Source: an uncultured Bacilli bacterium (GTDB taxonomy: Bacteria; Bacillota_I; Bacilli_A; RF39; UBA660). From it: a stretch of 64,000 nt of DNA. Shown here piece after piece: positions 2,613-55,822 of the stretch. Every line of letters begins with the position of its first letter. The stretch's first letter is position 1. The notes under the pieces are model-generated. The model was not told the DNA's origin and did not search any database. It saw nothing but the letters and a program-made list of their open reading frames with translations. Both the position numbers and the translations under genes were made by a program. The stretch lies in contig CAKOHK010000006.1 of assembly GCA_934085595.1 (NCBI GenBank), positions 12,883-76,882 of the forward strand, given 5' to 3'.

Positions 2613-3740
2613 ATGAATAGTGTGTTAGAAAAGTATTTTCTCACAAAAGAAAAAGAAATATTCAAATATGCTGAAGAGATAATGCGTATGTTTTCTTATA
2701 CTCCAGTAATTAATTATGATAGTAAAACATTCAAAAAAATTATAAACATATTTTTTGAAGATAAATATAAAATATTAAATCCAACTTTCGATAGAGTATC
2801 GAAATATTATAATTTTGAAGAAGAAGTTGATCCTGAATATAAATACATACTAGATTCAGTAATTAAATGTTATGAACTAGAAGAAATAGAAATTGAAAAT
2901 AATGAAGATATATTCTTTTATTCATATATATTATACTTTGCTGTGCTAATTGATAAGTTAAAAGATACAATACTTATAATGCCAAGCAAAGCAGATTTTA
3001 TGGTAAGTATAGCGAAGAAAGTATCAAATAGATTTGAATATGAAAAAGATGAGTCATTTGATAAATATACGAATGAAATAGTACAAATGATTAAGGAAAA
3101 CATAAAATCTCATAACAAATTAAATAATGCTATTAACAAAGCATCTAACAAAGATTTCTATAATGAATATATTCTATTAAGTGATGAATATAGTTTATAT
3201 AAATTAAAATATAATACAGATATAAAAGGCAGAAATAAATACAAAGAAAAAGACTTAAATAAAATATATAAAAAGCAAAATATAGAAGACAAATTAAAAA
3301 TAATGAGTTATGGTTACTCTCAAATAGTACTATTAAGATGTTTGCTAAATGATATGAGAAAAACAGTAGCATTAGAAATAACAAAAGATTTCTACAGCAA
3401 GAAAAGTAATATAAATGCATTCTTAAGATTAGTTACAAATAAATATACTAGTGATTATTCTAAAGTGCTAATAAAAGCAGAAGAATATGAAGAATGTGAA
3501 AACTTAGAAATATTAAAAAATAACGATATTAAAATAATAATAGAAAGTGATAATTTCGAAGATATTCTTAAAATTAATTTTGATGAAAATATGGTTTTAT
3601 TAACATCTTTAAGTTTGATTAATGAACATAAAAGTGAACTAACTAATAAAAACATTAAATATATTAAAAGAGTGGATGAAACTACTTATACAAGTAAAGA
3701 ATTATTTATTACAAACAAAACGGAGGTAGATTATGAGTAA
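2613..3740 (+). CDS. Hypothetical Lys/Glu-rich soluble protein, first gene of the McrB-like operon
   Basis: Long ORF with a Shine-Dalgarno sequence (AGGGAGG). No recognisable domain. Confidence 0.45.
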   Translation: MNSVLEKYFLTKEKEIFKYAEEIMRMFSYTPVINYDSKTFKKIINIFFEDKYKILNPTFDRVSKYYNFEEEVDPEYKYILDSVIKCYELEEIEIENNEDIFFYSYILYFAVLIDKLKDTILIMPSKADFMVSIAKKVSNRFEYEKDESFDKYTNEIVQMIKENIKSHNKLNNAINKASNKDFYNEYILLSDEYSLYKLKYNTDIKGRNKYKEKDLNKIYKKQNIEDKLKIMSYGYSQIVLLRCLLNDMRKTVALEITKDFYSKKSNINAFLRLVTNKYTSDYSKVLIKAEEYEECENLEILKNNDIKIIIESDNFEDILKINFDENMVLLTSLSLINEHKSELTNKNIKYIKRVDETTYTSKELFITNKTEVDYE

Positions 3741-5238
3741 TACAGGATCATTTTTCTTAGATTTTTTAAAGCCATTTTTTAAAGGAATAATAAGTATATT
3801 TGAAGCAATATTTAAAGGATTGTTTCAAATGTTTAATGTAGTTGATTATATTAAAATTATAAGAGAACACAAAGAAGAATTAACAGGAGCTAAAATAATG
3901 CTTGTTATACTAGCAGTTCTATGTTTACTTGTTCTTTTAGGATTATTAATATATGTAATAATTAGAATTGTTAAAAGAGTAATTAGAATTAAAAGAAAAA
4001 GCCATGAACAAGATTTATTAATGGATGAAGTAGAAAAATTAAATTACGAAAACATTAAGCTAAAAAAAGAAAATGAAAAATATTTAGCAATGGCAAATGG
4101 CGAAGTAAATGAAAATGGAGAAGTAGTTCCAAAGGAAGGTGAAGAGGAAGACGAAACAGCAGAACGTTTCTATAGACTATCAAAAATTGATGAAGAATGG
4201 AAAGATTATGTTCCAGAACCAACTAACACTACAATAAAATTAAATGAATTATGTGAACAATTTAGAAATTATTCAGCAAGTAAATTAGGATTATATTATA
4301 ATATAGATTTAATTAGACTATTCATTTCAGCCTTTGCATCAAACAGATTAATAATTTTACAAGGTATATCTGGTACAGGTAAAACATCATTAGCATACGC
4401 AATGGGAAGTTTTATCAATAATGATTCAGTTATTGCACCAGTACAACCATCATGGAGAGACCGTGCTGAATTATTCGGATACTTTAACGAGTTTACTAAA
4501 AAGTTTAATGAAACAGAATTATTAGCTAAGATGTATGAAGCATCTTATAATGACAAAATATATATATCAATTCTAGATGAAATGAATATAGCACGTGTAG
4601 AATACTATTTTGCAGAAATGCTATCAATTATGGAAATGCCAAGTTATGATGAGTGGGTAATAGATTTAGTGCCAAACCCATGGCCAAGCGATCCAAAGAA
4701 ATTAGTAAATGGTAAGTTTAGAATACCAAAAAATATGTGGTATGTTGGAACAATAAATAACGATGATTCAACATTCATGGTAACAGATAAAGTTTATGAC
4801 CGTGCTTTACCAATCAGTATTGATGAAAAAGCGGAAGAGTTTAAAGCACCTGATACAGATAAAGTAAATATTGGGTGTGAATACTTACTAAAATTATTTG
4901 ATGAAGCACAAAAAGCAAATCCAATGAGCGAAGATGTTTTATCAAAACTAAGCACAATGGACGATTATGTAATTAAACATTTTAGAATATCATTTGGTAA
5001 TCGTATTTTACAACAAATGAGAAACTTCGTACCAGTATTCGTATCATGTGGAGGACAAGAAATAGTGGCAGTAGATTATCTTATCTGTCATAAAATATTA
5101 AGAAAGTTTGAACAATTAAATATGTCATACATAAGAAATGAAGTAGATGGATTTATAGAGTTTTTAAATCAAACATTTGGACAAGATGTTATGAAAGAAT
5201 GTACAAGATATCTATTAGAACTTAAAAAGAATGCGTAA
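3733..5238 (+). CDS. Membrane-anchored McrB-family AAA+ (AAA_5) GTPase/ATPase
   Basis: One TM helix (LVILAVLCLLVLLGLLIYVII) then a coiled coil. The C-terminal region aligns block-by-block to E. coli McrB: IILQGISGTGKTSLA ~ FILQGPPGCGKTFVA; VQPSW..ELFGYF ~ VQFHQSYSYEDFIQGY; ISILDEMNIARVEYYFAEMLSIME ~ IFIIDEINRANLSKVFGEVMMLME; IPKNMWYVGTINNDDSTFMVTDKVYDRALPISID ~ [34 protein letters not shown]. Confidence 0.7.
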   Translation: MSNTGSFFLDFLKPFFKGIISIFEAIFKGLFQMFNVVDYIKIIREHKEELTGAKIMLVILAVLCLLVLLGLLIYVIIRIVKRVIRIKRKSHEQDLLMDEVEKLNYENIKLKKENEKYLAMANGEVNENGEVVPKEGEEEDETAERFYRLSKIDEEWKDYVPEPTNTTIKLNELCEQFRNYSASKLGLYYNIDLIRLFISAFASNRLIILQGISGTGKTSLAYAMGSFINNDSVIAPVQPSWRDRAELFGYFNEFTKKFNETELLAKMYEASYNDKIYISILDEMNIARVEYYFAEMLSIMEMPSYDEWVIDLVPNPWPSDPKKLVNGKFRIPKNMWYVGTINNDDSTFMVTDKVYDRALPISIDEKAEEFKAPDTDKVNIGCEYLLKLFDEAQKANPMSEDVLSKLSTMDDYVIKHFRISFGNRILQQMRNFVPVFVSCGGQEIVAVDYLICHKILRKFEQLNMSYIRNEVDGFIEFLNQTFGQDVMKECTRYLLELKKNA

Positions 5239-5254: not shown

Positions 5255-6349
5255 ATGATCGACAAAATCACAGAAATATTTGGAAATGTAAGTAATGAAG
5301 ATTATAAATCGTTTAACGATAAAATAAACTCAATAATAAACTTTACAAGAACAACTGAAAATGTTTCTCGTGATTTTAGTTGGGTACCAATTGTAGAAGA
5401 AACAATTCCATATTTAGATACTATTATTAGAAATCCAAAAAAGTTTTTACAACAAGAAGAAGATATAGTAATAGTGGAAAAATCTAAAAAAATATCTACA
5501 GAAACAGTAAGACACTTAGCTCAGCATACAAACTTTATACAAGATGTAGATGATGAAGGAATGGTAAAACCATCAAAAGTACTTAATGTAGAAAAAGAAG
5601 ATTCATGGGATTTGTATGAAAATAGGTTTATATATACTCTAGTAAAAGAACTAGCTTCATTTGTAGATAAATATGCAGGAAAAGAGTTAGAAAATCCAAA
5701 AATAGAAACTAATAGTAGTTTAGTTTATACTGCAACTACTAATTATGAAAACGAAGATATATCTGTAAGTATTAATTTAGAAAGCAGTAAAAAACAAGAA
5801 CCTAAAGATTTTGATATGGATGCAATGAAAAAAAGAATTACTTACATAAGAGATGTAGTAGGTGATTTTGAAAATAGTGCATTCATAAAAAGTTTATCAC
5901 AAGCAGTACCAGTAAAATCTCCAATTAAAAAGACAAACATAATACTAAAAGATCCAAACTTCCAAAAAGCACTAGCGTTATGGGAGTTTATAAAGAATAC
6001 AGAAATTGGCGAACCTCAAGATATTAAAAAAGATGTTAAAGATTTAACAACAAAAGAATTAAAATCAAAAATAGATATGTGCTCATTCTTAGAATACATA
6101 TCAACAACAGATAAAACAAATGATGAAGACATAACAGCAAAATCACTAGCTTCAAAGATATTATCTTTAATAGATGAATATGTAGATATAACAGAGCTAA
6201 CAGAAAAGAAAATACAAGATTTTGTACATGAAGAAATATCTAGTGAAATAGAAAAAAGAAAAGAAAAAGAAAAAAATATAAAAGAAATGTATGATAAATA
6301 CATTAAAGAATGCAATGCTTATATAAATGATTTATGTGAAATAATGTAA
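5255..6349 (+). CDS. Hypothetical protein in the McrC position downstream of McrB-like gene; no PD-(D/E)xK motif seen
   Basis: Starts 17 nt after the McrB-like gene with an RBS (AGGAGG). Acidic/Lys-rich C-terminus; no nuclease motif identifiable by eye. Confidence 0.45.
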   Translation: MIDKITEIFGNVSNEDYKSFNDKINSIINFTRTTENVSRDFSWVPIVEETIPYLDTIIRNPKKFLQQEEDIVIVEKSKKISTETVRHLAQHTNFIQDVDDEGMVKPSKVLNVEKEDSWDLYENRFIYTLVKELASFVDKYAGKELENPKIETNSSLVYTATTNYENEDISVSINLESSKKQEPKDFDMDAMKKRITYIRDVVGDFENSAFIKSLSQAVPVKSPIKKTNIILKDPNFQKALALWEFIKNTEIGEPQDIKKDVKDLTTKELKSKIDMCSFLEYISTTDKTNDEDITAKSLASKILSLIDEYVDITELTEKKIQDFVHEEISSEIEKRKEKEKNIKEMYDKYIKECNAYINDLCEIM

Positions 6350-6368
6350 GTATTAGAAAGGAAAAACT

Positions 6369-7730
6369 ATGCAAGACAATATAAATAAAGATACTGAAGA
6401 AAAAGTAACAAATGAACCAAAAGAAAATATAGAAGAAGTAAATGAAAGTTCTGTTGTTGATGATTTCTTCATGGAAGATATTTATAAGAACAATTATATA
6501 GATTTATATAAACTAGAAGGTTTAGATATTAAAGACCAATCTAAAATATTTACATTATTATTAACAAACATATATAAAGACTATAGTGACATTGATTATG
6601 GAAATATAAGAAAATATTCATTAAAATGTTTAAAATTAAGCTGTGACCCTGAAGAAAACGAGCTTAAATTACCATATAAATTATTAGTAACTAAAGATAC
6701 TAATAGAATGTATTTTAAGTTTGAAAAAGATAAAACTATGCTACTATTCTTTATAGTATTAGGACTATTTATAGCAATAGCTATCGCAGCAACTTATTTT
6801 GGATTAAGATACTTATCATTAGAGCATTTAAATATAGATATAAATGGTGATGGAATCGCAGATATTAACATTGATGTATCAGGAAACGAAAAAGCAGAGA
6901 TTAACATTTCAGAAGATAGAAAAACACCTATAAGAAATATAGATTATAAAGGCAATAGAAAACCAACATTTAATGTCGATGAAACAGGAAGTGGAAAAGC
7001 AACTAAAAACTTAATGAATCAAGATATAGATGGTGATGGAAAATGTGATTTGAACTGTGATACAACTGGTGATGGTTGGCCAGATTTAAACATTGATATA
7101 GACGGCGATGGAAAATGCGATTTATACTGTGATACTGATGGGGATGGGAAACCAAACTTAAACTTTGATACAACTGGTGATGGAACATGTGATTTACACT
7201 GTGATACAGATGGAGATAATATTTGTGATGTTAACTGTGTAAGTAATGTAAAAGCAGTAGAAGACATAACAGGTAACTCAAGTGTAGTAGGAAACAGTGC
7301 TACAGATGTAACAACAGCCCAGTTCGTAGTAGACTTCATAGATTCAAAAGAAATACGAGCCGAGAACTTATTCCCTGATGATCAAGATGATAAAGATGTA
7401 ACTAAATATGTGACAAAGACATTTACAATAGATAACAAATCTCCTATAAATGTTGTATATAGAGTAGAATTAGTTGTAAACAAAAATACATTTACAAGTG
7501 AAAACTTTGTGTATAATATGAAGTCAACTAATAATGGATTAACAAAAGATTTTGAGATGGTACCTAAGAAAACTGCGGATATAGCAGATAGAGTATTAAT
7601 AACACCAAATACAAAACAAACATATACATTAACATTTAAACTTAAAGGAATTGGAAAGAAACAGAACTTTGATCAAGGAAAAGTATTCCGAGGTTATTTA
7701 CAGGTTTACGTTTATGAACAAGGACACTAA
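6369..7730 (+). CDS. Membrane protein with thrombospondin-type-3-like Ca-binding Cys repeats and a TasA-like C-terminal beta domain
   Basis: Internal TM segment (LLFFIVLGLFIAIAIAATYFGL). Tandem DxDGDGxCDLxCDT repeats (DIDGDGKCDLNCDTTGDGWPDLNIDIDGDGKCDLYCDTDGDGKPNLNFDTTGDGTCDLHCDTDGDNICDVNC). The C-terminus ...QGKVFRGYLQVYVYEQGH parallels GKSFAGQLQVYTD of the 544-1251 protein and NYNQGK(R/S)xYGVLGV of the 52416/54301 proteins. A terminator (aggaca...tgtcct + T-run) overlaps the stop near 7725-7752. Confidence 0.55.
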   Translation: MQDNINKDTEEKVTNEPKENIEEVNESSVVDDFFMEDIYKNNYIDLYKLEGLDIKDQSKIFTLLLTNIYKDYSDIDYGNIRKYSLKCLKLSCDPEENELKLPYKLLVTKDTNRMYFKFEKDKTMLLFFIVLGLFIAIAIAATYFGLRYLSLEHLNIDINGDGIADINIDVSGNEKAEINISEDRKTPIRNIDYKGNRKPTFNVDETGSGKATKNLMNQDIDGDGKCDLNCDTTGDGWPDLNIDIDGDGKCDLYCDTDGDGKPNLNFDTTGDGTCDLHCDTDGDNICDVNCVSNVKAVEDITGNSSVVGNSATDVTTAQFVVDFIDSKEIRAENLFPDDQDDKDVTKYVTKTFTIDNKSPINVVYRVELVVNKNTFTSENFVYNMKSTNNGLTKDFEMVPKKTADIADRVLITPNTKQTYTLTFKLKGIGKKQNFDQGKVFRGYLQVYVYEQGH

Positions 7731-7859
7731 AATGTCCTTTTTCTTTTATAAAAAAAGTGATACAATTAAATAGCAACCAAATGTATACAAACAGCAATTG
7801 AAAATGTATTGTAAAGAATTATGATAAAATGATAATATTGTTATGAGAGGAAAAAAAGA

Positions 7860-9068
7860 ATGTTAGAAGTAATAAACAAAATATTAATAATATTTACTAA
7901 TTTATACGGATTATACTTTATTGTGACAGCACTTTCTATATTTAAAAAAGAAAAAAAGAAAGAAAACAAAAATAAATACAAAAATTATTTTTCAATATTA
8001 ATTCCAGCTAGAAATGAAGAGAAAGTTATAGCTAACTTAATAAATAGTTTAAATAATATGAATTATGATAAAGATAAATATGAAATAAATGTAATACTTA
8101 ATAATTCAAAAGATAATACCTATAATGTTTCTACAAACGCTGGAGCTAATGTATTAAGGTGTAAAAGTAAAATAACTACTAAAGGGGAGGCTTTAAAAGA
8201 AGCTTTTAGAAAAATTAACGATGATAAAATAGATGCATATATTATATTTGATGCTGACAATGTAGTAGACAAAGACTTTTTAAAATATATGAATGAATCT
8301 ATTAATAATGGTTATAAGGTTGCCCAAGGATTTAGAGATACAAAAAATGATAAATGTAATTGGATTTCATCTTCATATACAATATATTATTTTATACAAA
8401 ATCTATTCTATAATAAATCAAGAAAGAAATTAAATAGATCTGCATCTATTAATGGTACAGGTTTCATGATAAAAAAAGAAGTAATTGATACAATAGGATT
8501 TAATGTAAAAACATTATCAGAAGATGTAGAGTTTACAGGCATATGTGCATTAAATGATATTAAAATTGACTTTGTAGAAAAAGCAGTTACATATGATGAA
8601 CAAGCATCAGATTTTAAAATATCATGGATACAAAGAAAAAGATGGTCAAAAGGTTGTTTACAATGCTATAGAAATTATTTTAAATCACTAATAAAAAAAT
8701 CAAATAAACCTTCTTGTTTAGACATGCTATTGATATACTTTGCACCAATATTACAAATATTATCTTTATTCATTGTTATAATAGATTTAGTATCAATGTA
8801 TTATAATGGAATAATACAAAATATAAGTATGAATACAATAATTTTCAGTATATCATTTGCAGTTATAATATATTTATTACAAGTTATAGTTTCATTATAT
8901 TCTATTTATTATTTTAAAAGAGATATTAAGAAATATATAAGTGGAGTATTCCTTTTTCCAGTATTTCTAATAACTTGGCTTCCAATAAATATAGTAGTAT
9001 TATTTAGAAAAAATATTAAATGGGAGCATATAGAACATAGTAAAAGTTTAACAATAGAAGACATGTAA
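7860..9068 (+). CDS. Family 2 glycosyltransferase, polytopic membrane type
   Basis: LIPARNEEKVI and FDADNVVD (DxD) motifs in the N-terminal half; multiple C-terminal TM helices. Confidence 0.65.
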   Translation: MLEVINKILIIFTNLYGLYFIVTALSIFKKEKKKENKNKYKNYFSILIPARNEEKVIANLINSLNNMNYDKDKYEINVILNNSKDNTYNVSTNAGANVLRCKSKITTKGEALKEAFRKINDDKIDAYIIFDADNVVDKDFLKYMNESINNGYKVAQGFRDTKNDKCNWISSSYTIYYFIQNLFYNKSRKKLNRSASINGTGFMIKKEVIDTIGFNVKTLSEDVEFTGICALNDIKIDFVEKAVTYDEQASDFKISWIQRKRWSKGCLQCYRNYFKSLIKKSNKPSCLDMLLIYFAPILQILSLFIVIIDLVSMYYNGIIQNISMNTIIFSISFAVIIYLLQVIVSLYSIYYFKRDIKKYISGVFLFPVFLITWLPINIVVLFRKNIKWEHIEHSKSLTIEDM

Positions 9069-9077
9069 AAACAGGCA

Positions 9078-11054
<1,977 letters not shown>

Positions 11055-15652: not shown

Positions 15653-16459
15653 TTAACTTCTTTTATCAAACATACAAACCATCTTATACATACTTACAGA
15701 TATAATAATTAATATAACAATTCCACTCATAACCAAATCTAAATTAAATATTTGACTTCCATATAATATCAAATGACCAATACCAGCTTTAGATGTTAAA
15801 AACTCTCCCATAATAACGCCAATTAAACACATAGATATATTTATTTTAAGAGTACTAATTATAGTATTTTTATTACTTGGTAATATTACATTCATAAGTA
15901 TACTAAATCTAGAAGCACCATAACATTTTAATAATTTAATTTTATTTTCATCTGTATTTATAAATCCATTAAGTAAAGACTCAGTACTAACTATAATAGA
16001 TATTAATATCGCCATAGTTATAATAGCTTTAATATTAGCACCAGCCCATATTATTATAATAGGACCAAGAGCAACTTTAGGAAGAGAGTTTAATATAGTA
16101 AGATATGGATCAAATACTTTATATAGAAACTTACTATAACAAAGTATAATAGCAATTATAATAGATAAAACACCTGCAAGTATAAAAGAAATCATAGTTT
16201 CTTTTACAGTAATCCATATATGATATACCAAATTATTATCATTAAATAAAGATATTATAGTTTTAAATATTTTATAAGGACTACTAGTTATAAATGAGTT
16301 TATAATATTTTTATCAGCAAGCACTTGCCATAAGATAATAAATAATATAAGAATAAATATTTGAGTAAATAATACTAATATTTTATTATATTTAATTTTT
16401 TTTAAATATTTTAATTGTTCACTACTCATATCCATCAATTTCTTTCCATAATAAATCAA
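15653..16459 (-). CDS. ABC transporter permease (NitT/TauT/SsuC family)
   Basis: Polytopic membrane protein in an operon with ATPase and SBP genes. Confidence 0.7.
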   Translation of the reverse strand: MIYYGKKLMDMSSEQLKYLKKIKYNKILVLFTQIFILILFIILWQVLADKNIINSFITSSPYKIFKTIISLFNDNNLVYHIWITVKETMISFILAGVLSIIIAIILCYSKFLYKVFDPYLTILNSLPKVALGPIIIIWAGANIKAIITMAILISIIVSTESLLNGFINTDENKIKLLKCYGASRFSILMNVILPSNKNTIISTLKINISMCLIGVIMGEFLTSKAGIGHLILYGSQIFNLDLVMSGIVILIIISVSMYKMVCMFDKRS

Positions 16460-17177
16460 AATAATAACTAAACTCTGGTGCTTTTCTATTCATAGTTGGA
16501 CTACTTCTATTACTTAGATTTATTTCATATATATTTTTAATAATTGCAGGCCTATTTGATAAAACTATAATTTTATTAGAAAGTGAAATTGCTTCCGAAA
16601 GATCATGCGTTACCATAAGTACAGTTTTATTTTCTTCTTTAATAATTCTATAAACATCATCACTAACTTTTAACCTTGTTTGATAATCAAGAGCTGAAAA
16701 GGGTTCATCAAGAAGCAATATATCAGGTTTAGTAGCAAGAGTTCTAATTAAAGCAACTCTTTGTCTCATCCCACCAGATAAATTAGAAGGATATTTATCT
16801 TTAAACTCATATAAATTATATTTCTTAAGTAAATGAATTACATATTCTTTACTATCTTTATTTAATTTTTTACTTATTTTAAGACCAAGCAAAGCATTAT
16901 CAAGTATAGTAAGCCAAGGAAATAAAGTATCATTTTGAAACATATAAGATACATTAATATTATCTTTAATTATAACATTACCATCATAATCATTATCAAG
17001 ATTAGAAATTATATTAAGTATAGAACTTTTACCACATCCAGAAGGACCAACTATACATATAAAATCCCCTTTATTAATATCAAAAGATATATTATTTATA
17101 GCTTTAGTTTCTCCACTTAAAGTATGATATGTTTTAGAAAGATTATATACACTCAAAATACTATTTGTTAAACTCAT
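16422..17177 (-). CDS. ABC transporter ATP-binding protein (SsuB/TauB-like)
   Basis: IVGPSGCGKSS Walker A; LSGGMRQRVALIRTL signature; LLLDEPFSALD Walker B. Confidence 0.85.
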   Translation of the reverse strand: MSLTNSILSVYNLSKTYHTLSGETKAINNISFDINKGDFICIVGPSGCGKSSILNIISNLDNDYDGNVIIKDNINVSYMFQNDTLFPWLTILDNALLGLKISKKLNKDSKEYVIHLLKKYNLYEFKDKYPSNLSGGMRQRVALIRTLATKPDILLLDEPFSALDYQTRLKVSDDVYRIIKEENKTVLMVTHDLSEAISLSNKIIVLSNRPAIIKNIYEINLSNRSSPTMNRKAPEFSYYFDLLWKEIDGYE

Positions 17178-18150
17178 TAGTTATTAGTAGAGTATTATCT
17201 ATTTTATTATTAATACTTTTTCCATATAATAATACATCTTGTAATCTATCAAAATCTTCTATTTTTATATAAGTACTATCATACCAAGAATCAGCATCTT
17301 TATATCTTTTAACAAGTAAAGTAAGATCATCTTTATTCATATCACTAAATTGATTAATAATCGCATCAGCTATATCTTTTTCATTATTATTTAAAACAAA
17401 TCTTATACCTTTATTAAGTGCTTTATTAAATCTCTTAATTAAATCTTTATTATTATTAATATAATCTTCTTTAGCATAGAAAGTTGTATAAGGAACTTCT
17501 CCAGATAAATTACCAAGTGAAGCTAAAACACAACCACTCTTAGACTGTTCAACTTTCAAAGCATTAGGTTCAAATAAATTAACAAAGTCTCCTTGACCAC
17601 TCATATAAGCACCAGCAAGACTAGCAAAATCAACAGAAGAATCGATATTAACTTTATTATAATCTACATTAGATTCTTTTAAAGCATACATAAACATCAT
17701 AAGAGGCATACCAGCAGTTCTACCAGCAAGAACTTTTTTACCTTTAAGCATATTCATATTAAACTTATCTTTAAGTGCGCAGTCACCTACTATAAATTGA
17801 CCATCTCTTTTAGTAAGTGAAGCAAATGTAATAAGTTTCATTTTAGAATTATTGTAAACATAGATAGTTGCTTCAGGTCCACTAAACCCTATATTAGCAT
17901 CTCCAGAAATAACAGAAGTAGCAACCTTATCAGCACCAAGAGTAAGTACTAAATCAATATCAATTCCTTCGTCTTTAAAATAACCTTTTTCAATACTAAC
18001 ATAAAGTGGACTATAAAATATTGAATGTGTAACCTCAGATAAAACAACAGTATCTAGTTTACTATCATTATGTTTTTCTTTATATGTATAAAACATAGTA
18101 ATACAAATCAATATAATAGTAGCACTACATACAAGTATAAATTTCTTCAT
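17161..18150 (-). CDS. ABC transporter substrate-binding protein (NMT1/SsuA-like)
   Basis: N-terminal membrane anchor/signal, periplasmic-binding-like domain, first gene of the 3-gene ABC operon. No TPP riboswitch motifs in the 5' leader. Confidence 0.65.
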   Translation of the reverse strand: MKKFILVCSATIILICITMFYTYKEKHNDSKLDTVVLSEVTHSIFYSPLYVSIEKGYFKDEGIDIDLVLTLGADKVATSVISGDANIGFSGPEATIYVYNNSKMKLITFASLTKRDGQFIVGDCALKDKFNMNMLKGKKVLAGRTAGMPLMMFMYALKESNVDYNKVNIDSSVDFASLAGAYMSGQGDFVNLFEPNALKVEQSKSGCVLASLGNLSGEVPYTTFYAKEDYINNNKDLIKRFNKALNKGIRFVLNNNEKDIADAIINQFSDMNKDDLTLLVKRYKDADSWYDSTYIKIEDFDRLQDVLLYGKSINNKIDNTLLITNEFNK

Positions 18151-18228
18151 AAATCACTCTCTCTTTCAAAGTATTATATTCAAAATACATATAAAAGTGT
18201 TTTACATGTCATTTCTTTTACATTTTAT

Positions 18229-18257
18229 TTGACAACTAGTATTGACTTTGATATAAA
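18229..18257 (+). promoter_or_regulatory. Sigma-A-type promoter TTGACA-17-TATAAA upstream of 18296 gene
   Basis: Read directly from sequence. Confidence 0.45.
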
Positions 18258-18295
18258 TAAATTATATAATTTATGCAGAAAAGGAGACAAAGAAT

Positions 18296-18658
18296 ATGTT
18301 AAACTTAATAAACTTTTTAGATACTATCGATAATACACAAGAGTTATGTGATAGTTTAAGACCAGTACTTAGATTAGTAGGATATGTATTATTATTAATA
18401 AAAATTGCTGTACCTATTATTTTAATAGTTGTTGGTGTAGTTGATTTAATGAATGCAGTATCTCAAAAGAAAGATGATGATATTAAAAAAGCTCAACAAT
18501 TATTAGTTAAAAGAATTGTGGCAGCAGTTATGGTATTCTTAGTAGCAACTTTAGTATCAGTAGTAATGAGATTAGTAGGAAATACTTCATATACTAAGTG
18601 TATGGATTGTATAGATCATCCAACAAGTTGTACAGTAGATGAAGATACAGGAGATTAA
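18296..18658 (+). CDS. Small membrane protein, unknown function
   Basis: Two hydrophobic segments. A terminator (agaagtag...ctacttct + T-run) follows near 18672-18700. Confidence 0.4.
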   Translation: MLNLINFLDTIDNTQELCDSLRPVLRLVGYVLLLIKIAVPIILIVVGVVDLMNAVSQKKDDDIKKAQQLLVKRIVAAVMVFLVATLVSVVMRLVGNTSYTKCMDCIDHPTSCTVDEDTGD

Positions 18659-18738
18659 TAAAATTAACTAGAAGTAGTAACTACTTCTTTTTATTTGAAA
18701 AAAAATATATATAGTGTTATAATCTTACTGAGGGAATT

Positions 18739-20793
18739 ATGAAAAAAGAAATAAAAAATAAAGTAAATAAAATAATAAAAAGTATAGCTAAGTTTCTTAA
18801 AAAATATGCTTCAACTAACATATTATTTTTGTCTTATGTAATATTATCAGTATTAGTTGGACTTAGCTTAAGATGGGCAACAATAGGTAATAAATATATA
18901 TTCAAGCCAATTTTCTGTGATATAGCAGTAGCATTATTAATCGGAGCATTTGGATATTTATTCAAACCAAAATACCAATTTAGATATTTTTTCTCATGGT
19001 TATTTTTTGCAGTAGCACTAGCAATAGCAAATACTATTTACTATCAATTTTTTAAATCATTCATATCAGTTAATTTAATATCAACCGCATCAATGATAGG
19101 TGAAGTAAATGATTCACTATTTGAAAAAATGCATTTTTACCAATTTTTATATTTAATATATCTATTTATATTCATATTCATACATAAAAAACTATCGAAA
19201 AAGAATTATTATTTTGAAGTTGAAAAAATAGAAAAAGGAAAGAGAATGTTTACATACACACTAGCGTCTTCTGGAATTATAGTATTACTTTTATCTATAA
19301 CTTTAACTGGTACTGATTTAAGTAGATTAATAAAACAATGGAATAGAGATTATGTTGTACAAAAGTTTGGACTTTATGTTTACACTATAAATGATATGGT
19401 TCAAAGTATGCAGCCTAAGATAGATACATTATTTGGATATGATGAATCAGCTAAAACATTTAGAGAATATTATTCATGCAGATGGGAAAATGAAAATAAA
19501 AAGAAAAATGAATATACAGACATATTTAAAGGTAAAAATTTAGTATTTATTCATATGGAAAGTATGCAAAACTTCTTACTTGATTTAGAGTTTAATGGAG
19601 AAAAAGTAACTCCAAATATAAATAGATTAGCAAGTGAAGGAATATATTTTTCAAGATTCTACCCACAAATAAGTACAGGAACATCTTCTGATACAGAGTT
19701 TACACTATTAACTGGTTTAATGCCATCAGCAAGTGGTACAGTATTTGTAAACTATTATGATAGAGATTATAAGTCAATGCCTAAATATTTTGATGATTTA
19801 GGATATTATACATTCAGTATGCATGCAAATAACGCAGAATATTGGAATAGAAAAACAATGCATAATAGCCTTGGATATAAAGAGTTTTATGCAAAAGATA
19901 GATATGAAGTACCGACAGATACAAAAGATCCAAATTATGTAGGCTTGGGTCTATCAGATAAATCATTCTTTAAACAAATATTACCAATATTAAATGATAT
20001 AAATGATACAAAATCTCCATACTTTGGAACAATTATTACGCTTTCGAATCACTCACCATTTAATTCGCTTGATAAATATGATCCAATAGATGTAACAATG
20101 AAATACACAGAATTAAATGAAAATGGTGAAGAGGAAGAAAAAACAGCAAAATATATAGATGGCACTCCAATGGGTAACTATGTAAAATCAGCACACTATG
20201 CAGATGCCGCACTAGGACAATTCTTTGAAGATGTCGAAAATGGTTCCTTTGCAGATGACACAGTATTCATTCTATATGGAGATCACGAAGCAAGACTTGC
20301 TAAAAGTCAATTCGATTTATTATATAATTACGACCCTAAAACAAATGAGAGAATACCAGAAGATGATGAAAACTATTACAGTTTAGATAATTATAAATAT
20401 GACCTATTAAAAAATACACCATTAATTATATGGACAAAAGACAAAAAGTTCCAAAAAGAAATAACAGATGTAATGGGAATGTATGATATTTTGCCAACAG
20501 TTGCTAATATGTTTGGCTTTGAAGAAAAATACGCTTTAGGACATGATATATTTAGCGATAATGAAAAAATAGTGGTATTTCCAAATGGGAATGTATTAAC
20601 AAATAAAGTATATTATAGTAACTTAAATAATAATTATGTAGTACTAACTGATGAAACTATAGATGAAGATTATATAACAAGAATATCTTCAAATGCCGAA
20701 AAAATATTAGATGTATCAAATGGGATAATTAGACACGATTTAATAAAAAAAGAAGCAGATAAGATAGGAGAATGTAATAGTGAAGAAAAATAA
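18739..20793 (+). CDS. ltaS: LtaS-family polyglycerolphosphate lipoteichoic acid synthase / sulfatase-like membrane protein
   Basis: Five N-terminal TM helices, then an extracellular sulfatase-fold domain with the GTSSDTEFTLLTGL, LSNHSPF and YGDHE motifs typical of LtaS/MdoB. Confidence 0.75.
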   Translation: MKKEIKNKVNKIIKSIAKFLKKYASTNILFLSYVILSVLVGLSLRWATIGNKYIFKPIFCDIAVALLIGAFGYLFKPKYQFRYFFSWLFFAVALAIANTIYYQFFKSFISVNLISTASMIGEVNDSLFEKMHFYQFLYLIYLFIFIFIHKKLSKKNYYFEVEKIEKGKRMFTYTLASSGIIVLLLSITLTGTDLSRLIKQWNRDYVVQKFGLYVYTINDMVQSMQPKIDTLFGYDESAKTFREYYSCRWENENKKKNEYTDIFKGKNLVFIHMESMQNFLLDLEFNGEKVTPNINRLASEGIYFSRFYPQISTGTSSDTEFTLLTGLMPSASGTVFVNYYDRDYKSMPKYFDDLGYYTFSMHANNAEYWNRKTMHNSLGYKEFYAKDRYEVPTDTKDPNYVGLGLSDKSFFKQILPILNDINDTKSPYFGTIITLSNHSPFNSLDKYDPIDVTMKYTELNENGEEEEKTAKYIDGTPMGNYVKSAHYADAALGQFFEDVENGSFADDTVFILYGDHEARLAKSQFDLLYNYDPKTNERIPEDDENYYSLDNYKYDLLKNTPLIIWTKDKKFQKEITDVMGMYDILPTVANMFGFEEKYALGHDIFSDNEKIVVFPNGNVLTNKVYYSNLNNNYVVLTDETIDEDYITRISSNAEKILDVSNGIIRHDLIKKEADKIGECNSEEK

Positions 20794-21385
20794 AAAAGTA
20801 CTAGCACTACTAATACTAATAGGGGTTATATTATTTGGATATTTAATATTTAGAGTACGCAATGATTTCTTTAAAAAACAAGATAAAACAGTAGTAGATT
20901 CAATAGGATTATATGGATACACACTAGAAAAGACAGATACAAAACTTTATGAAAACTATTTTAAAGAATTAAGTAAAATATTAAATGAAAAAACTATTGA
21001 TTATGAAAAATATGCAGAATACTTATCAAAATTATTCATAGTAGATACCTTTACATTAAATAATAAACTAGCATCAACAGATATAGGTGGAACTGAATTT
21101 ATACATCCAGACTTAAAAGAAAACTTCAAAGAAAATATGGGCAACAATATGTATAGGAATATAGAAGTAAACTTAGACGGAAAAAGACAGCAAGAATTAC
21201 CTATAGTTAAAGATGTTACAATAGACACTATTAAAGAAGACAAAGTAAAATATAATGATAAAGAATATGATGGATATATTATAAAAGCAAATATAGAATA
21301 TGAAAAAGACTTAGGATATCAAACAGAGATAGAACTAACAATTATAAAAGATGACAAAATATTATACATAATCAAAGGAAAGTAA
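20780..21385 (+). CDS. Membrane-anchored hypothetical protein
   Basis: N-terminal TM helix. A terminator (ctagttata...tataactag + T7) follows near 21383-21418. Confidence 0.45.
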   Translation: MKKNKKVLALLILIGVILFGYLIFRVRNDFFKKQDKTVVDSIGLYGYTLEKTDTKLYENYFKELSKILNEKTIDYEKYAEYLSKLFIVDTFTLNNKLASTDIGGTEFIHPDLKENFKENMGNNMYRNIEVNLDGKRQQELPIVKDVTIDTIKEDKVKYNDKEYDGYIIKANIEYEKDLGYQTEIELTIIKDDKILYIIKGK

Positions 21386-26499: not shown

Positions 26500-28686
26500 A
26501 TGGGTATATTTAGTGAACAAACAAGAATAGATAGTTTAATTAAAATAGCAAGATTAATAAATACAAATTACGAAAAAGAGGGTGAAGTATTAGAATACTT
26601 ATCAAAACTACAAAAAGGAAAAATAAATAATGATTTTATTGATGATGATATATTAGAGGCATGTATAAAGTCATACTTAAATGCTAAAGATAGTACTGTG
26701 AGTTTTGACGAGTTAAAAGAAACTATAAAGTTTATGCTTCCATATGCTGAAGAAACAGAAGACTTTGAAAGTATAAAATCTATGATATTAAGAAGTTCAG
26801 ACTTAATAGTATATGATAAAGACTTAGTTAATACAAAATTATATATGTTATTTAACGATAAGATTTTATATACACAGTTTATGAGAATATTAAAAAGAAC
26901 AGGTATTTTAGAAAATAAAATAATATATAGAAACTTAGTTGATTATGCATGTAATATTGCACCTTTATGTATGAACTCAAGTGAGTTTTCTAATGAACTT
27001 ATTTCTTATGTAAATGATATTCAAAAAGAACTAGGTAGTTTAGATGAAGCCAAATTAAAAGATTATAATGTTAAAAGATTAGTAGAAATGAAAAAAAGAC
27101 GTGGCATTTATCCACTTGATGAAACAACATTACTTGAAATAAGTTCTATGCTAGATAGAGTACAAAGAATCTCTTCTACCTTTGAAGATATTGAAACAAG
27201 AGTAAAAAAATATGAAGAACAAATTAGCCTAATAACAGCAAGAGGTATTGAAAAAATAGATAATGAAGCAGCAGATAAAATTAGAAAACTAGCCTCAGAC
27301 ATAGAAGAAGTAAAAGCTGATTTGATAAAAAGAGTAGATGATTATGTTCTACTATTAAAACAAGCAATGAAAAAAACAAGTGACGAAGTTTTAGCAAAAG
27401 TACTTGAAGAAGCATCAGAAACATTAAATAAAATTAAAGTACAAGCAAAAGAGATAACAGTTATTTCAAATAACGATTTAGTTCGTATGAAAAAACAAAA
27501 AGATGAAATAGTAGAAGAAATTAAAAGTAGTCCAGAACTAAGAAATATGTTGACAGAAGAAGATCTATCAAGCAAATTAAAAGAAGTTCTTAAAGGAGTT
27601 AAAAATGGAGATATAAGTAATGCACCAGTAGCAAGTAGTGAAGTTATAATTCCATCTACTCCATATATAATAGTTCCAGAAGAAAAGATAGACTACACTA
27701 TATTAAAAGCATTCGATGAAAGCATTCCTTATTCTGAAAGAATAGGAATGATAAAAGACGAAATGTCTACAAGACAAAGAAATGGAGAAAGATTCCATAG
27801 AAAAACACTTGAAATAGCGGGAGCTTTAATCGAGGGGGATTGGCCTTATGTATATGGTCCATCTGGAATGGGCAAGAGTTACTGTATAGAACAAGCAGCA
27901 GAACTACTTGGTATGAAAAGCATAGATAATGGTAAGATAACAGATAAATATAGCATTATGGCATATAATGACCCACACGGAAGATTTAGAGTTACACCTA
28001 CATATAATGCAGTCGCTTTTGGAAAACTACTTACACTTGATGAGTTTGATAATGGTAACACTGATAGTTTCATAATATATAATAATATCTATTCTAATTT
28101 ATTAAGCACTCTTGAAACTGGTAAAGCAAGATATATTACATTCGGAGAAAATGTACAAACTCGTGTTCATCCAAACTTCAGGATGATATCAGCAGGAAAT
28201 ACAGATGGAGAAGGTGAAAACGAAGCATATTCAGATAGACATAAAATAGACGAATCAGTAATTGAAAGAATGGTGCCAATATATTTTGATTATGATAATG
28301 AAGTAGAAAAAACTATATTAGGTGATTATAAAGCATGGTACGATATAATAGTTAAGTTTAGAAGTGCATGTATGGCTTATTCTAATTCTACTGGAGTGTA
28401 TGCAAAAGGTATAATTACCACAAGAGATGCATCTTTAATATCAAAATATATAAGACATAATAGTAAAACAGTAGATGAAGTGTTATCACAAAAGTTTGTA
28501 CAAATAAAAGATGAAGCATATCTAAATGCAATAGCACAAGAATTAAGAAAATACTATGGTTTAACTGATAGTAGAATAATAGATTTAGATATGTCAAATA
28601 CAAGACTTGATAGTATAAAAGATCCAAAAGCCATCGCAAAGAAATTAATATGTAAATGTGAGGGAAGACATAATGCAAGATGGTAA
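26500..28686 (+). CDS. AAA_5 / McrB-MoxR-like AAA+ ATPase with ~430-aa coiled-coil N-terminal extension
   Basis: C-terminal Walker A YGPSGMGKSY; LDEFDNGNTDSFIIYNNIYSNL (Walker B / sensor region, compare McrB IDEINRANLSKVFGEVMMLME); VHPNFRMISAGNTDGEG...RHKIDESVIERMVPIYFDY (compare McrB VPENVYIIGLMNTADRS...ALRRRFSFIEI). Confidence 0.65.
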   Translation: MGIFSEQTRIDSLIKIARLINTNYEKEGEVLEYLSKLQKGKINNDFIDDDILEACIKSYLNAKDSTVSFDELKETIKFMLPYAEETEDFESIKSMILRSSDLIVYDKDLVNTKLYMLFNDKILYTQFMRILKRTGILENKIIYRNLVDYACNIAPLCMNSSEFSNELISYVNDIQKELGSLDEAKLKDYNVKRLVEMKKRRGIYPLDETTLLEISSMLDRVQRISSTFEDIETRVKKYEEQISLITARGIEKIDNEAADKIRKLASDIEEVKADLIKRVDDYVLLLKQAMKKTSDEVLAKVLEEASETLNKIKVQAKEITVISNNDLVRMKKQKDEIVEEIKSSPELRNMLTEEDLSSKLKEVLKGVKNGDISNAPVASSEVIIPSTPYIIVPEEKIDYTILKAFDESIPYSERIGMIKDEMSTRQRNGERFHRKTLEIAGALIEGDWPYVYGPSGMGKSYCIEQAAELLGMKSIDNGKITDKYSIMAYNDPHGRFRVTPTYNAVAFGKLLTLDEFDNGNTDSFIIYNNIYSNLLSTLETGKARYITFGENVQTRVHPNFRMISAGNTDGEGENEAYSDRHKIDESVIERMVPIYFDYDNEVEKTILGDYKAWYDIIVKFRSACMAYSNSTGVYAKGIITTRDASLISKYIRHNSKTVDEVLSQKFVQIKDEAYLNAIAQELRKYYGLTDSRIIDLDMSNTRLDSIKDPKAIAKKLICKCEGRHNARW

Positions 28687-29620
28687 AAGTAATATAACTA
28701 GATATCCTTATAATATATTTTCACCAGTGAAAATATTAGATGATAGTTATATTCTTTATCCTGCAAAGTTTAAAGGCTTAAAAGATTTATATACTTTCTT
28801 AAAATCAAATCCTGAAATAAATAGTGCTGTATTTAAAGATCCTCATAGTCAAAGGGTAAGTGAAAGTGATTCATTCTATGGCGTATCTTATGAAGAAAGT
28901 TTAGAAAGATTGATTCATGATGACCCTCAAAACTATAGATTATTTGCAGAACTTAATAAAGAATATGTAGGTGCTGGTAAAGTGGTAACTCATAGATATA
29001 AAACAGTAAACACCCTAGCAGGAGGACATATAGATCCAGTTTTATACTCAAAAGGTTCACCATTATGTTATGAAACACAAGAAGTAATAGTTGCACCTAG
29101 ATACATAACAGCACATGTAGGTATTTCTACATCATATAAAACAACAGATGCTCAAATATACAATAAAGCAATATCAGTAATTAATATAGTTTATGCACTT
29201 CAAAAATATGGATATAAAATAAAATTAGATTCTTATGTTAGAGTAAAATGTAAAAATGAAATAATACAAATAATAATAGATTTAAAAGAAAGAAATGGTA
29301 GATTAAATATAAATGATTTATATGAAGCTACATGCAACAAAGAGTTTTATAGAAGAATAATATTTAGAGTAATAGAAAGTATGTCTGTAGAAGATACACG
29401 TTGGCCTACTATATATGGTTCAGAATTCTCTGGCTCAATAGTTAAAAATGATAAAGATTTATATTTTGCTTCTCCTATGGAAATGGGTCTTACAGGTGAA
29501 GATTTATATGAAGATTTTAGAAGAGTTTTAGCTTATATGCACTTAGAAGATTATATTGATGTACCAAGAGTAGAAAAAGATTTTAAAGAGAAGAGCACTA
29601 AACTAAAATTACAGTTATAA
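28673..29620 (+). CDS. Hypothetical 315-aa protein, last gene of AAA_5 operon
   Basis: Likely start ATG 28673 (MQDGKSNIT) with RBS GAGGGAAG; the track start 28658 is in the same frame. A bidirectional terminator (aaaaaacgattt/aaatcgtttttt) is near 29625-29660. Confidence 0.45.
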   Translation: MQDGKSNITRYPYNIFSPVKILDDSYILYPAKFKGLKDLYTFLKSNPEINSAVFKDPHSQRVSESDSFYGVSYEESLERLIHDDPQNYRLFAELNKEYVGAGKVVTHRYKTVNTLAGGHIDPVLYSKGSPLCYETQEVIVAPRYITAHVGISTSYKTTDAQIYNKAISVINIVYALQKYGYKIKLDSYVRVKCKNEIIQIIIDLKERNGRLNINDLYEATCNKEFYRRIIFRVIESMSVEDTRWPTIYGSEFSGSIVKNDKDLYFASPMEMGLTGEDLYEDFRRVLAYMHLEDYIDVPRVEKDFKEKSTKLKLQL

Positions 29621-40367: not shown

Positions 40368-41002
40368 AAAAGATATTAATTGCAATATTAACAGTTATAT
40401 TATTTATACCTTATCTAAAAGCAGATTGTGACTATCAAAGTGAAGTTAGATTAGGAAAACTAGCAAGTTCAATAACATATGAATATAAATATGATAAAAC
40501 ACATAATAATTTCACATTAACTCTTTATAATGTAAGTGATGAATTATATATAACATACAATCAAAGAATAATAGCACCTACTGATGGTAAAGTTACAATA
40601 AATAATTTAAATCAAGGAACGTATTTATCTTTACCAGTAGAAGCATTAAAAGGAAGCTGTAATGGTTCATTAATGACTTTATATATAATACTTCCATACT
40701 TTAATAAATACTATAATTCAGTAGAATGTAAAGATTATGTTGATAAATTAAAAATATGTACAGATGAATTCTTATCATATGAACCAAATGAAGAATTATT
40801 AACATCAAATATAAATAATTATTTAAATGGAATTAAAAATAATGAAATAAAAGATGATACAAATCAAACAATAACTATAGTAGATAAAGCAAAAAACTTC
40901 GCAAGTAAATGGGGTATAAAAATAGGCTTATCACTAATAACAACAATATCATGTATAGTTTATTTTCAAGTAAAAATAAGAAAATTAAAACATGGACTAT
41001 AA
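40364..41002 (+). CDS. Secreted protein with C-terminal TM anchor, sortase-operon associated
   Basis: Signal peptide MKKILIAILTVILFIPYLKA|DCD. C-terminal hydrophobic segment + KIRKLKHGL. Same architecture and size as the 222-aa cassette protein. Confidence 0.5.
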   Translation: MKKILIAILTVILFIPYLKADCDYQSEVRLGKLASSITYEYKYDKTHNNFTLTLYNVSDELYITYNQRIIAPTDGKVTINNLNQGTYLSLPVEALKGSCNGSLMTLYIILPYFNKYYNSVECKDYVDKLKICTDEFLSYEPNEELLTSNINNYLNGIKNNEIKDDTNQTITIVDKAKNFASKWGIKIGLSLITTISCIVYFQVKIRKLKHGL

Positions 41003-41087
41003 TAGATTTACTTTATAGACAATATTACAATTTTCTTTTTAATATTAATAGTTAAATAAAGTTAATATCTATAATAAAGGAGTGTAT

Positions 41088-46630: not shown

Positions 46631-46635
46631 ACTTA

Positions 46636-46676
46636 AAAGAACTATTAAGGAATAAGATATTTATAGTTCTTTTTTT
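46636..46676 (+). terminator. Rho-independent terminator (AGAACTAT...ATAGTTCT + T7)
   Basis: Inverted repeat read directly. Confidence 0.55.
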
Positions 46677-46822
46677 ATAGTAAAACTTAATAACTGTTTA
46701 TAAAGTTAAAGCCTTAAAACATTAAAATAAGTATGAAAATGTACAAATTTTATTTTCAAATAAAACATGGACTATAATTTATAAAAATGATATACTTATT
46801 TTATAAAAGTAAAGGAGTGTAT

Positions 46823-54212: not shown

Positions 54213-54300
54213 GATACTAAAACCTAGTACCTTTTTATAGGTTCTATTGTAATTAATCATTAGAGTTGATATAATAATAACTAGAGTAAAGGAAGATAAT

Positions 54301-55725: not shown

Positions 55726-55822
55726 CTAATAAAAAAGTGTTCACGAAAGTGTTCGCTTTTTATTTGCTTCTTGACAGGGGGGGTACCTTTATAATTATTA
55801 ATAGAGAATAGAGGTACATAGA

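Follow-up and report, generated by a model that had tools for sequence, protein, structure and literature searches.

In a 64,000-nucleotide stretch of DNA from an uncultured Bacilli bacterium (assembly GCA_934085595.1, contig CAKOHK010000006.1, positions 12,883 to 76,882; the whole stretch is referred to as the window), the gene at 6369-7730 (+) encodes a 453-aa protein of an unnamed family, here called the target. Its architecture is undescribed: a predicted cytoplasmic coupling domain is followed by a SipW-like signal-anchor, a solenoid-like stalk of 12-residue Asp/Cys repeats and a terminal TasA-like domain. The gene matches the conserved fourth and last position of an McrBC-derived module of the CoCoPALM type. 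Under the explanation that we propose, with evenly balanced confidence, the target would serve as an accessory subunit of a TasA-type filament and link it to a GTPase complex. The kinds of system to which it would belong, TasA-superfamily accessory subunits and CoCoPALM operons, are already known.

The coding frame is complete in the table of open reading frames and represents a real gene. A Shine-Dalgarno-like sequence read from the DNA, AGAAAGGA (6355-6362, +), lies 6 nt ahead of the ATG. The target frame opens only 19 nt past the stop codon of an McrC-like gene, which makes co-transcription of the two genes probable. Overlapping the target stop codon is a terminator-like hairpin (7720-7739); together with its T-run it occupies 7720-7749 (+), marking the target as the last gene of the operon. 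Homology searching returned 840 homologues at E<=1e-3 among the candidates scored, which indicates that the gene is both real and conserved. None of the 120 homologues listed had a Pfam domain or an informative name, the sole name being 'hypothetical protein', and comparison of the target with Pfam and NCBIfam gave only sub-threshold noise (DUF6802, SGP). An initial annotation of this DNA had claimed that the domain combination was undescribed, and this holds both for the Pfam and NCBIfam models and for the source names of the homologues listed. The window has ~25 % G+C, and its nearest genomic relatives are metagenome-assembled genomes that come from the gut of rabbits and humans and bear the label uncultured Bacilli or 'Tenericutes'.

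Domain architecture of the target

Domains were delimited from an alignment of 54 homologues (A1) and an AlphaFold2 model with a mean predicted local distance difference test score (pLDDT) of 81. The C-terminal domain (aa ~317-449; 7317-7715, +) is assigned to the TasA/camelysin-superfamily jelly-rolls by hhalign, AlphaFold2 and Foldseek. BLASTP aligned it with the post-signal domain of the protein encoded at 52416-54212 (25 % identity over 147 aa, E 1e-5), and also with the 544-1251 protein over the C-terminal strands. When a profile of the C-domain (A2) was compared by hhalign with one built from nine SipW-signal TasA-like proteins from the window and related loci (A4), the match had 99.6 % probability and E 2.9e-24 over 129 columns, the entire mature domain. 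At the level of sequence, this firmly established that the C-domain is homologous to the TasA-like subunits of the same genome. The TasA-like domain had been recognised in the initial annotation by its final strand, and the similarity is now seen to span the whole domain. Peptidase_M73 was matched by four of the nine A4 proteins (best E 8.1e-7), the first at 29.5 bits against a cutoff of 22.5, and through this link the placement of the C-domain in the wider TasA superfamily is well supported. The target itself gave no direct match to Peptidase_M73 or to the BsaA/TasA models of NCBIfam. Searches of PDB sequences with the protein and with the C-domain profile returned only filamin and Als matches, which were judged to be due to chance.

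Structure prediction agreed with this assignment. A model of the C-domain only was a beta-sandwich with pLDDT 90 and a predicted template modelling score (pTM) of 0.83, and in the full-length model the domain had pLDDT 85-95. The comparison with TasA by structure prediction and Foldseek, proposed in the initial annotation, yielded a jelly-roll whose top PDB match, for both the full and the domain model, was the TasA fibre structure 8aur_A. For the domain model this was the only match with E<=1e-3 (E 3.2e-4, probability 1.0), with a template modelling score of only 0.41; the archaeal TasA-superfamily protein CanA was also among the matches. Ahead of the jelly-roll lies a flexible linker (aa 291-316; 7239-7316, +), defined by the AlphaFold2 model, in which pLDDT is <50 at aa 293-324, and by the column profile, in which the motif N-x-G-[ST]-S-x-x-[VI]-G-N is conserved. 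By eye only, the linker resembles the donor-strand region at the mature N-terminus of the TasA-like proteins (ITGNSS... vs LTVSGND...); the BLASTP alignment begins just past it.

Between the membrane and the linker lie about eleven 12-residue repeats (aa 155-290). Approximately five are degenerate, Cys-free and Asp/Asn-rich (aa 155-218; 6831-7022, +; NIDINGDGIADI, NIDVSGNEKAEI and others, placed with the AlphaFold2 model). Six are clear and form a predicted calcium-binding stalk (aa 219-290; 7023-7238, +), identified by alignment and by Tandem Repeats Finder, which reported a 72-nt tandem array at 7023-7217 with 2.7 copies, 79 % matches and periods of 36 and 72 nt. The clear unit reads D-x-D-G-D-G-x-[C/P]-D-L-N-[C/I/F], and position 8 of the repeat unit is C, P or A. 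The initial annotation had counted five to six Cys-paired repeats; the six clear repeats are real, but only four contain a CX3C pair (C226/230, C250/254, C274/278 and C286/290). Across the 54 homologues three of the pairs never vary, and the 250/254 pair is extra in the target.

Cysteines in the repeats followed a strict rule. In 1,746 units from ~180 sequences, which are related so that the counts are not independent, Cys at positions 8 and 12 was all-or-none: both were present in 502 units, neither in 1,240 and one in 4. Units without Cys had Pro or Ala at residue 8 and Ile or Leu at residue 12. The all-or-none rule implies a contact between these two residues within each unit, made by what would be either a hydrophobic pair or a Cys pair (a disulfide or a shared metal site). 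The AlphaFold2 model placed isolated beta-bridges at positions 10 and 12 of each unit, with pLDDT ~90 and a 12-residue recurrence. From this model we infer that the repeats are stacked coils of a narrow solenoid, and they are predicted to bind Ca2+.

The number of repeats varied between homologues. There are ~28 consecutive all-Cys units (CDLNCDTDxDGK) in related locus L009 (7151-8722), an estimated 55-60 units each in L010 (5392-8088) and L011 (8557-11448), and additional repeat blocks in homologues of 540-700 aa. Such variation would suit a spacer or stalk whose length can be adjusted, and suggests that stalk length is tuned, perhaps to wall thickness. In one sequence, P0163, we observed a Thr-rich linker with the look of an O-glycosylation region.

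The repeats had been described in the initial annotation as exactly like thrombospondin (TSP) type-3 repeats. This likeness was not supported. A Pfam scan found no TSP_3, TSP3_bac, Dockerin_1 or EF-hand match in the target (E<=1) or in the 54 homologues (E<=0.1), and neither thrombospondin nor COMP appeared in the PDB sequence search (E<=10) or in the top 50 Foldseek matches; Foldseek with the full model gave no match for the repeat stalk. The module is unclassified, and is neither TSP type-3 nor dockerin, the latter being a classification that the initial annotation had named as one that would contradict it. What the repeats share with TSP_3 is tandem Asp-rich loops of the generic DxDxDG type with cysteines interspersed; this DxDxDG core, present in the target as D-x-D-G-D-G-x-x-D-x-N, is common to many unrelated Ca-binding folds. 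They differ from TSP_3 in their strict 12-mer unit, in the intra-repeat CX3C pair that swaps with Pro/Ala...Ile/Leu, and in the periodic beta-bridged stack of the AlphaFold2 model. In TSP-3, cysteines join neighbouring repeats and have a different spacing. Dockerin and EF-hand loops and FG-GAP repeats resemble the target in their 12-residue period with Asp/Asn at positions 1, 3, 5 and 9. The target repeats, however, have no helix-loop-helix and occur in many more tandem copies than in dockerin or EF-hand proteins (up to an estimated ~55-60, in L010 and L011). The Tenebrio molitor antifreeze protein is a beta-helix of 12-residue coils braced by one Cys pair per coil, too narrow for a normal hydrophobic core, and offers a possible structural analogy to the Cys repeats. 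The two have no sequence kinship, they differ in Cys spacing and calcium dependence, and the antifreeze protein was absent from the top 50 Foldseek matches. When the repeat region was compared by tblastn, distant matches appeared in Nocardia, Dactylosporangium, delta-proteobacterial and Chthonomonadaceae genomes; they were rejected as relatives, two having no Pfam domain and two being generic FG-GAP/EF-hand proteins.

The N-terminal part of the target begins with a disordered segment (aa 1-28), followed by a conserved, predicted cytoplasmic domain (aa ~30-120; 6456-6728, +; from A1 and AlphaFold2) with the consensus RKYxLKCIKLTCDPKDNxIHLPYGLxVxK. The model of this N-domain is alpha/beta with pLDDT 72-91, and Foldseek with the full model found no match for it. 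A word-indexed homologue search with the N-domain alone returned fragments only, and an exhaustive profile search was required. This detected only 60 clusters (at 50 % identity) among 1.84 billion representatives, and nearly all of the full-length matches had the target's own architecture. The N-terminal ~120 aa are predicted to be a conserved cytoplasmic domain rather than a disposable leader. As a separate observation, the N-domain profile (6474-6728, aa 36-120) weakly matched P0168, P0171 and P0175 (E 2e-6 to 6e-4), whose N-termini look like TilS, the tRNA(Ile)-lysidine synthetase, with an SGGxDS PP-loop. The overlap falls in the '...LPxGxxVxKxYxxLxF' region and may reflect a shared small fold or chance.

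A single transmembrane helix or signal-anchor follows (aa 124-148; 6738-6812, +), recognised by AlphaFold2 and hydrophobicity; its sequence is MLLFFIVLGLFIAIAIAATYFGL, and the modelled helix covers aa 123-151 with pLDDT 86-97. A K/R-rich stretch precedes the helix and an acidic stretch follows it, so that by the positive-inside rule the protein is predicted to be inserted N-in/C-out with the N-domain in the cytoplasm. At the end of the helix is the motif AATYFG (6786-6803, +), a possible SipW recognition or cleavage site identified by column profile, motif comparison and family statistics. The pattern [G/A][A/S][T/S]Y closes the helix in the column profile, with Y143 in 53 of the 54 homologues. 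Among full-length homologues, 124 of 135 had [AGS][TS][YF] at this point; in 121 of these 124 the aromatic residue was exactly 12 residues ahead of the first repeat, in 102 it was followed by S/A/T, and in 96 the next residue was G/A. The family motif is G-A-T-Y-S/A-A/G, of which the target's AATYFG is an atypical variant, with a Phe at the putative -1 position as in only 3 of the 124. The motif resembles the SipW-cognate GATFAYF/ATYAYF of the co-encoded TasA-like proteins, and in some genomes the target homologue has ATYAGVQY where neighbouring TasA-like proteins have ATYAYFQA. It is missing from L003, and L010 has a lipobox-like LIGC in its place. We take the TasA signal to read GGTWA|A, which the family motif mirrors. 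The mature N-terminus of TasA is at residue 28 (PMC9674648). A loose resemblance of this segment to a SipW-cognate motif had been suggested in the initial annotation, and its recurrence across the family makes that resemblance firmer. It provides substantial, though circumstantial, support for SipW recognition of the family. We judge the chances that SipW cleaves at GATY-S/A to be about even for the family and lower for the target copy, and the conserved cytoplasmic domain argues that the uncleaved form has a function.

The CoCoPALM module and its variants

The initial annotation considered the target on its own and missed its gene context, in which the target is the fixed fourth member of a CoCoPALM module. 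The operon begins with a 235-aa TasA-like protein (544-1251, +), the presumed major subunit, with the SipW-cognate signal ...IIGATFAYFS. A 157-aa protein follows (1406-1879, +), probably a divergent minor TasA-like subunit, since hhalign matched it to A2 with 81 % probability (E 1.2e-5) and it is conserved in L019. The next gene (1872-2498, +) encodes a SipW-type (archaeal/ER-type) signal peptidase I, with a match to TIGR02228 above cutoff (E 1.3e-24) and to the SipW model at E 1.8e-22. The core of the module then comprises three genes and the target. The first (2613-3740, +) encodes a 375-aa protein of unassigned function, recognised by its homologues in module loci, with no Pfam or NCBIfam family match and no evident transmembrane segment by eye. 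We rejected its identification as a sortase: residues 267-360 repeatedly, but not significantly, matched class C structures (E~0.1) with Ser in the place of the catalytic Cys, probably by chance. The second core gene (3733-5238, +) encodes an McrB-like AAA+ GTPase with an N-terminal transmembrane segment and a putative FtsB/DivIC-like coiled coil, assigned from AAA_5, DivIC and McrB matches. The third (5255-6349, +) encodes an McrC-like protein with a DUF2357 N-domain (PF09823, E 1.2e-8, above cutoff), in which no nuclease domain was detected by Pfam or NCBIfam and which had no PDB sequence match.

The GTPase assignment is consistent with several comparisons. The McrB-like protein matched E. 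coli McrB (6hz4) at E 8e-5, and in this one pairwise alignment its INNDD aligned with MNTAD, an NxD then D as published for this branch (PMC11090510), NxxD being a formal alternative. It also matched the PADLOC model PDC-M26A (E 3e-40); PADLOC gave no match for the target, the 375-aa protein or the McrC-like protein. A transmembrane segment is visible at aa ~55-78, and the DivIC/FtsB match (aa 68-116, E 0.008) is below cutoff.

We compared 11 loci (the window, L001, L003-L008 and L019-L021). All 11 kept the order McrB-like, McrC-like, target, with target identities of ~40-60 %, and flanking genes varied from locus to locus. A gene of ~355-390 aa lay ahead of the McrB-like gene wherever the contig extends. 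Searches recognised homologues of the 375-aa protein in four to six loci, namely L001, L003, L004 and L019 by both searches and L005 and L006 by BLAST only, and L020 and L021 had a similar-sized gene at the same position. TasA-like genes with SipW-cognate signals were found <=10 kb away in most loci. In L001, a 173-aa gene upstream of the module was not recognisable as SipW. In L021 (1025-17336) the four-gene module lies inside the dcw cluster, between two penicillin-binding protein genes and near mraZ, mraW, mraY and ftsW, and in L001 (16788-18582) it is ~5 kb from murG/ftsQ; these neighbourhoods are of note because the GTPase has an FtsB/DivIC-like segment.

Variant loci separate the two halves of the target. 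Homologues that lack the cytoplasmic domain are encoded right inside TasA-like clusters from which McrBC genes are absent (L010 and L011). L010 has two TasA-like genes, an 898-aa repeat/TasA-domain protein with the lipobox-like LIGC, and SipW, in that order, and in L011 a 963-aa homologue with an ordinary signal-peptide-like N-terminus comes directly after a TasA-like gene. Together with the N-domain search, this indicates that the ectodomain works with TasA-like subunits and that the N-domain is a CoCoPALM-specific addition. L019, the closest NCBI relative, has a second, paralogous CoCoPALM-like module (15702-21355) with the order TasA-like (366 aa), SipW (194 aa), McrB-like, McrC-like, and, in the place of the target, a plain SipW-signal TasA-like protein (372 aa).

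CoCoPALM was defined by Bell et al. (eLife, 2024) as an NxD-type McrB GTPase fused to an FtsB-like transmembrane segment and coiled coil, with an McrC homologue and a signal peptidase (PMC11090510). The genes upstream of the target fit this definition in the NxD branch of McrB, the DUF2357 domain of McrC and the signal peptidase at 1872-2498. The system was given one paragraph, with its analysis deferred to a 'forthcoming publication', and neither the target, the 375-aa protein nor a TasA-like component was described (PMC11090510). Our literature searches found no later CoCoPALM paper, nothing relevant on TasA with McrB, and no description of the target protein.

Role of the target and competing explanations

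We propose that the target acts as a base, anchor or nucleator of a TasA-type surface filament assembled by donor-strand exchange. A single signal-anchor helix would insert it N-in/C-out. Its conserved cytoplasmic domain of ~90 aa would contact the 375-aa protein, the McrB-like GTPase tethered to the membrane and the McrC-like protein that lacks a nuclease. On the outer side, the approximately eleven Asp-rich repeats would bind Ca2+ and form a stiff stalk of stacked, solenoid-like coils, with a Pro/Ala8-Ile/Leu12 hydrophobic pair or a Cys8-Cys12 pair bracing every coil. The flexible donor-strand-like linker and the TasA-like jelly-roll would form the distal module, joining the SipW-processed subunits (544-1251 and 1406-1879) by beta-strand complementation. 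The target would thus have a TapA-like base, anchor or nucleator role in which the filament is tied to the GTPase. The observations from which this proposal starts are the architecture, the homology of the C-domain, the pairing of the cysteines and the linkage of the genes; that the protein lies N-in/C-out, binds Ca2+, packs as a solenoid, joins subunits by strand complementation and touches the GTPase is inferred.

Known systems provide precedents for such a role. TasA polymerises by insertion of its N-terminal donor strand into the next subunit, and TapA has been proposed to give the first strand and to anchor the fibre (PMC9674648). TasA-superfamily loci commonly encode membrane or wall anchors or minor subunits predicted by AlphaFold3 to join the fibre, and calcium can drive assembly of AbpX-clade filaments (bioRxiv 10.64898/2026.01.04.697558). 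The target parallels the B. subtilis TasA/TapA/SipW system in its jelly-roll, which is best matched by the TasA fibre, in the SipW-type peptidase of its operon, in a transmembrane-end motif resembling a SipW-cognate signal, and in its presumed accessory, nucleator or anchor role, which is that of TapA. In contrast, the TasA-like domain of the target is C-terminal, behind a cytoplasmic domain, a transmembrane helix and a Ca/Cys stalk, none of which TapA has, and its operon includes McrBC-derived genes that are absent from tapA-sipW-tasA. The archaeal Tafi anchor and the SLH/LPXTG anchors of abpX clusters are likewise same-locus proteins that combine a TasA-like or strand-complementing module with a surface anchor (bioRxiv 10.64898/2026.01.04.697558). 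The likeness is by description, and the target differs from these anchors in having an N-terminal signal-anchor and cytoplasmic domain instead of SLH/LPXTG, with its Ca sites in a separate stalk and not at the donor-strand interface.

Several points weigh against this proposal. SipW is adjacent to the module only in the window and L019, and none of the remaining nine loci with the module has it as a neighbour. Structural similarity to TasA is low in absolute terms (rmsd ~9 Å at the template modelling score given above), many generic jelly-rolls score only slightly worse, and the C-domain profile found no TasA among PDB sequences. Ca2+ binding is predicted from the DxDxDG-type motifs alone, and strand complementation and the contact between N-domain and GTPase derive from homology and gene order only. 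The family as a whole is known solely through sequences and predicted models. Finally, the conserved transmembrane-end motif is compatible with a signal peptidase, and many family members may be released and not anchored.

This last point leads to the explanation raised in the initial annotation, in which SipW cuts after GATY-S/A and frees a secreted product of ~310 aa, comprising an N-terminal amphipathic strand, the Ca-rod and the TasA-like domain, as a fibre or matrix subunit. The cytoplasmic domain would then be a possibly regulatory pro-piece; the accessory role is shared with our proposal, and it is the anchoring that differs. We regard release as a credible but somewhat doubtful account of the target. 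It is favoured by the motif in 124/135 homologues, its fixed 12-residue spacing in 121/124, the S/A/T at the equivalent of the TasA -1 position in 102/124 and the G/A at +1 in 96, and by the likeness of ATYAGVQY to ATYAYFQA in some genomes. The ordinary signal-peptide-like N-termini of homologues without the N-domain (L011 and L009) and the SipW gene in the window's operon point the same way. However, the target has the Phe at -1 seen in only 3/124, L003 lacks the motif and L010 replaces it with a lipobox-like sequence, and a leader would not usually comprise a conserved, folded cytoplasmic domain of 90 aa with strict linkage to three cytoplasmic or membrane partners. The TasA cleavage site used in this comparison was assumed from the literature.

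Three other explanations were considered. In the first, the McrBC-derived module would be an anti-phage system like its CoCoNuT relatives and the target an extracellular receptor or decoy, its TasA-like tip and Ca-stalk sensing phage contact or damage to the envelope and the signal passing through the membrane to the GTPase. The conserved domains of the target on either side of the membrane, the match of the McrB-like protein to PDC-M26A, a candidate defence model, and its place in the NxD branch containing CoCoNuTs fit such a defence sensor. We consider this improbable: no nuclease or recognisable effector was found in the module by Pfam, NCBIfam, PADLOC or PDB searches, the module lies among housekeeping and cell-envelope genes and not in defence islands, and its linkage to TasA-like structural genes is consistent. 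Still less probable is a wall-spanning scaffold for the envelope, division or sporulation that works with the FtsB/DivIC-like GTPase and is unrelated to fibre polymerisation. The DivIC/FtsB similarity (E 0.008), the L021 module in the dcw cluster, the L001 module near murG/ftsQ, the germination genes adjoining L020 and a collagen-like gene 2.5 kb downstream of the target in the window would suit it, but the DivIC match is below cutoff, the flanking genes differ between loci so that none of these neighbours is conserved, and the C-domain is specifically homologous to SipW-dependent fibre subunits. The same homology bears on the reading that we find hardest to credit, a stand-alone calcium-dependent adhesin of dockerin- or thrombospondin-like type whose jelly-roll is a carbohydrate-binding module for host matrix or polysaccharide. 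CBM61, CBM32 and CBM6 jelly-rolls were among the Foldseek matches (E 2e-3 to 1e-2) and the stalk is Asp-rich, yet no TSP_3, dockerin or CBM match passed in Pfam for the target or the 54 homologues, and the TasA-like profile-profile match was far stronger than any CBM similarity.

Other surface loci and implications

Further loci for surface proteins were present in the window. At 38748-52266, a class B sortase gene (38748-40367; TIGR03064, E 7e-50) precedes two tandem copies of a three-gene unit (41082-46630 and 46787-52266), each encoding a transmembrane protein (222/232 aa), a Cys-rich secreted giant (1467/1434 aa) with no family match, and a 159-aa DUF5411 protein (E 5.6e-49); the locus looks like another uncharacterised surface structure. 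At 52416-56191 lie three further SipW-signal TasA-like genes, encoding 598, 474 and, in a truncated form, 122 aa, with near-identical N-domains and differing C-extensions. The first and third pass the Peptidase_M73 cutoff, and the third weakly matches BsaA (TIGR04090). A collagen-like GxT-repeat protein (10173-11036, -), which we presume to be BclA-like, is encoded beside two further proteins, a GT2 glycosyltransferase (7860-9068) and one of 362 aa (9078-10166) that to the eye resembles a glycosyltransferase with TPR-like repeats; together they suggest a possible glycosylated surface or spore filament. A separate two-gene module at 26500-29620 comprises a second AAA_5-like ATPase of 728 aa, whose N-terminal half is long and coiled-coil-like, and an overlapping gene for a DUF7192 protein (E 1.5e-13).

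Bacillus biofilms have TasA-type fibres as their main protein scaffold, and these fibres have relatives across bacteria and archaea. To our knowledge, all are considered to form extracellularly with no energy source. The target is the obvious candidate for the physical link between GTPase and fibre, as no other component has conserved domains on each face of the membrane. A bolder, and in our view unlikely, hypothesis is that it is a transmembrane coupler whose cytoplasmic domain is engaged by the restriction-enzyme-derived McrBC GTPase, which thereby gates SipW processing, nucleation, anchoring or retraction of a TasA-type fibre held beyond the wall on a new calcium/cystine-braced 12-residue solenoid. 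If true, this would be a previously unknown NTP (nucleoside triphosphate)-dependent filament machinery in Gram-positive bacteria. CoCoPALM was flagged in 2024 as a combination of the McrBC restriction GTPase with 'pilus assembly' genes and has never been dissected. The unclassified calcium/cysteine repeat module could be modelled in Pfam, and the target makes testable both the job of a nuclease-less, McrBC-derived motor and the anchoring or nucleation of TasA-like fibres in abundant uncultured gut Bacilli.

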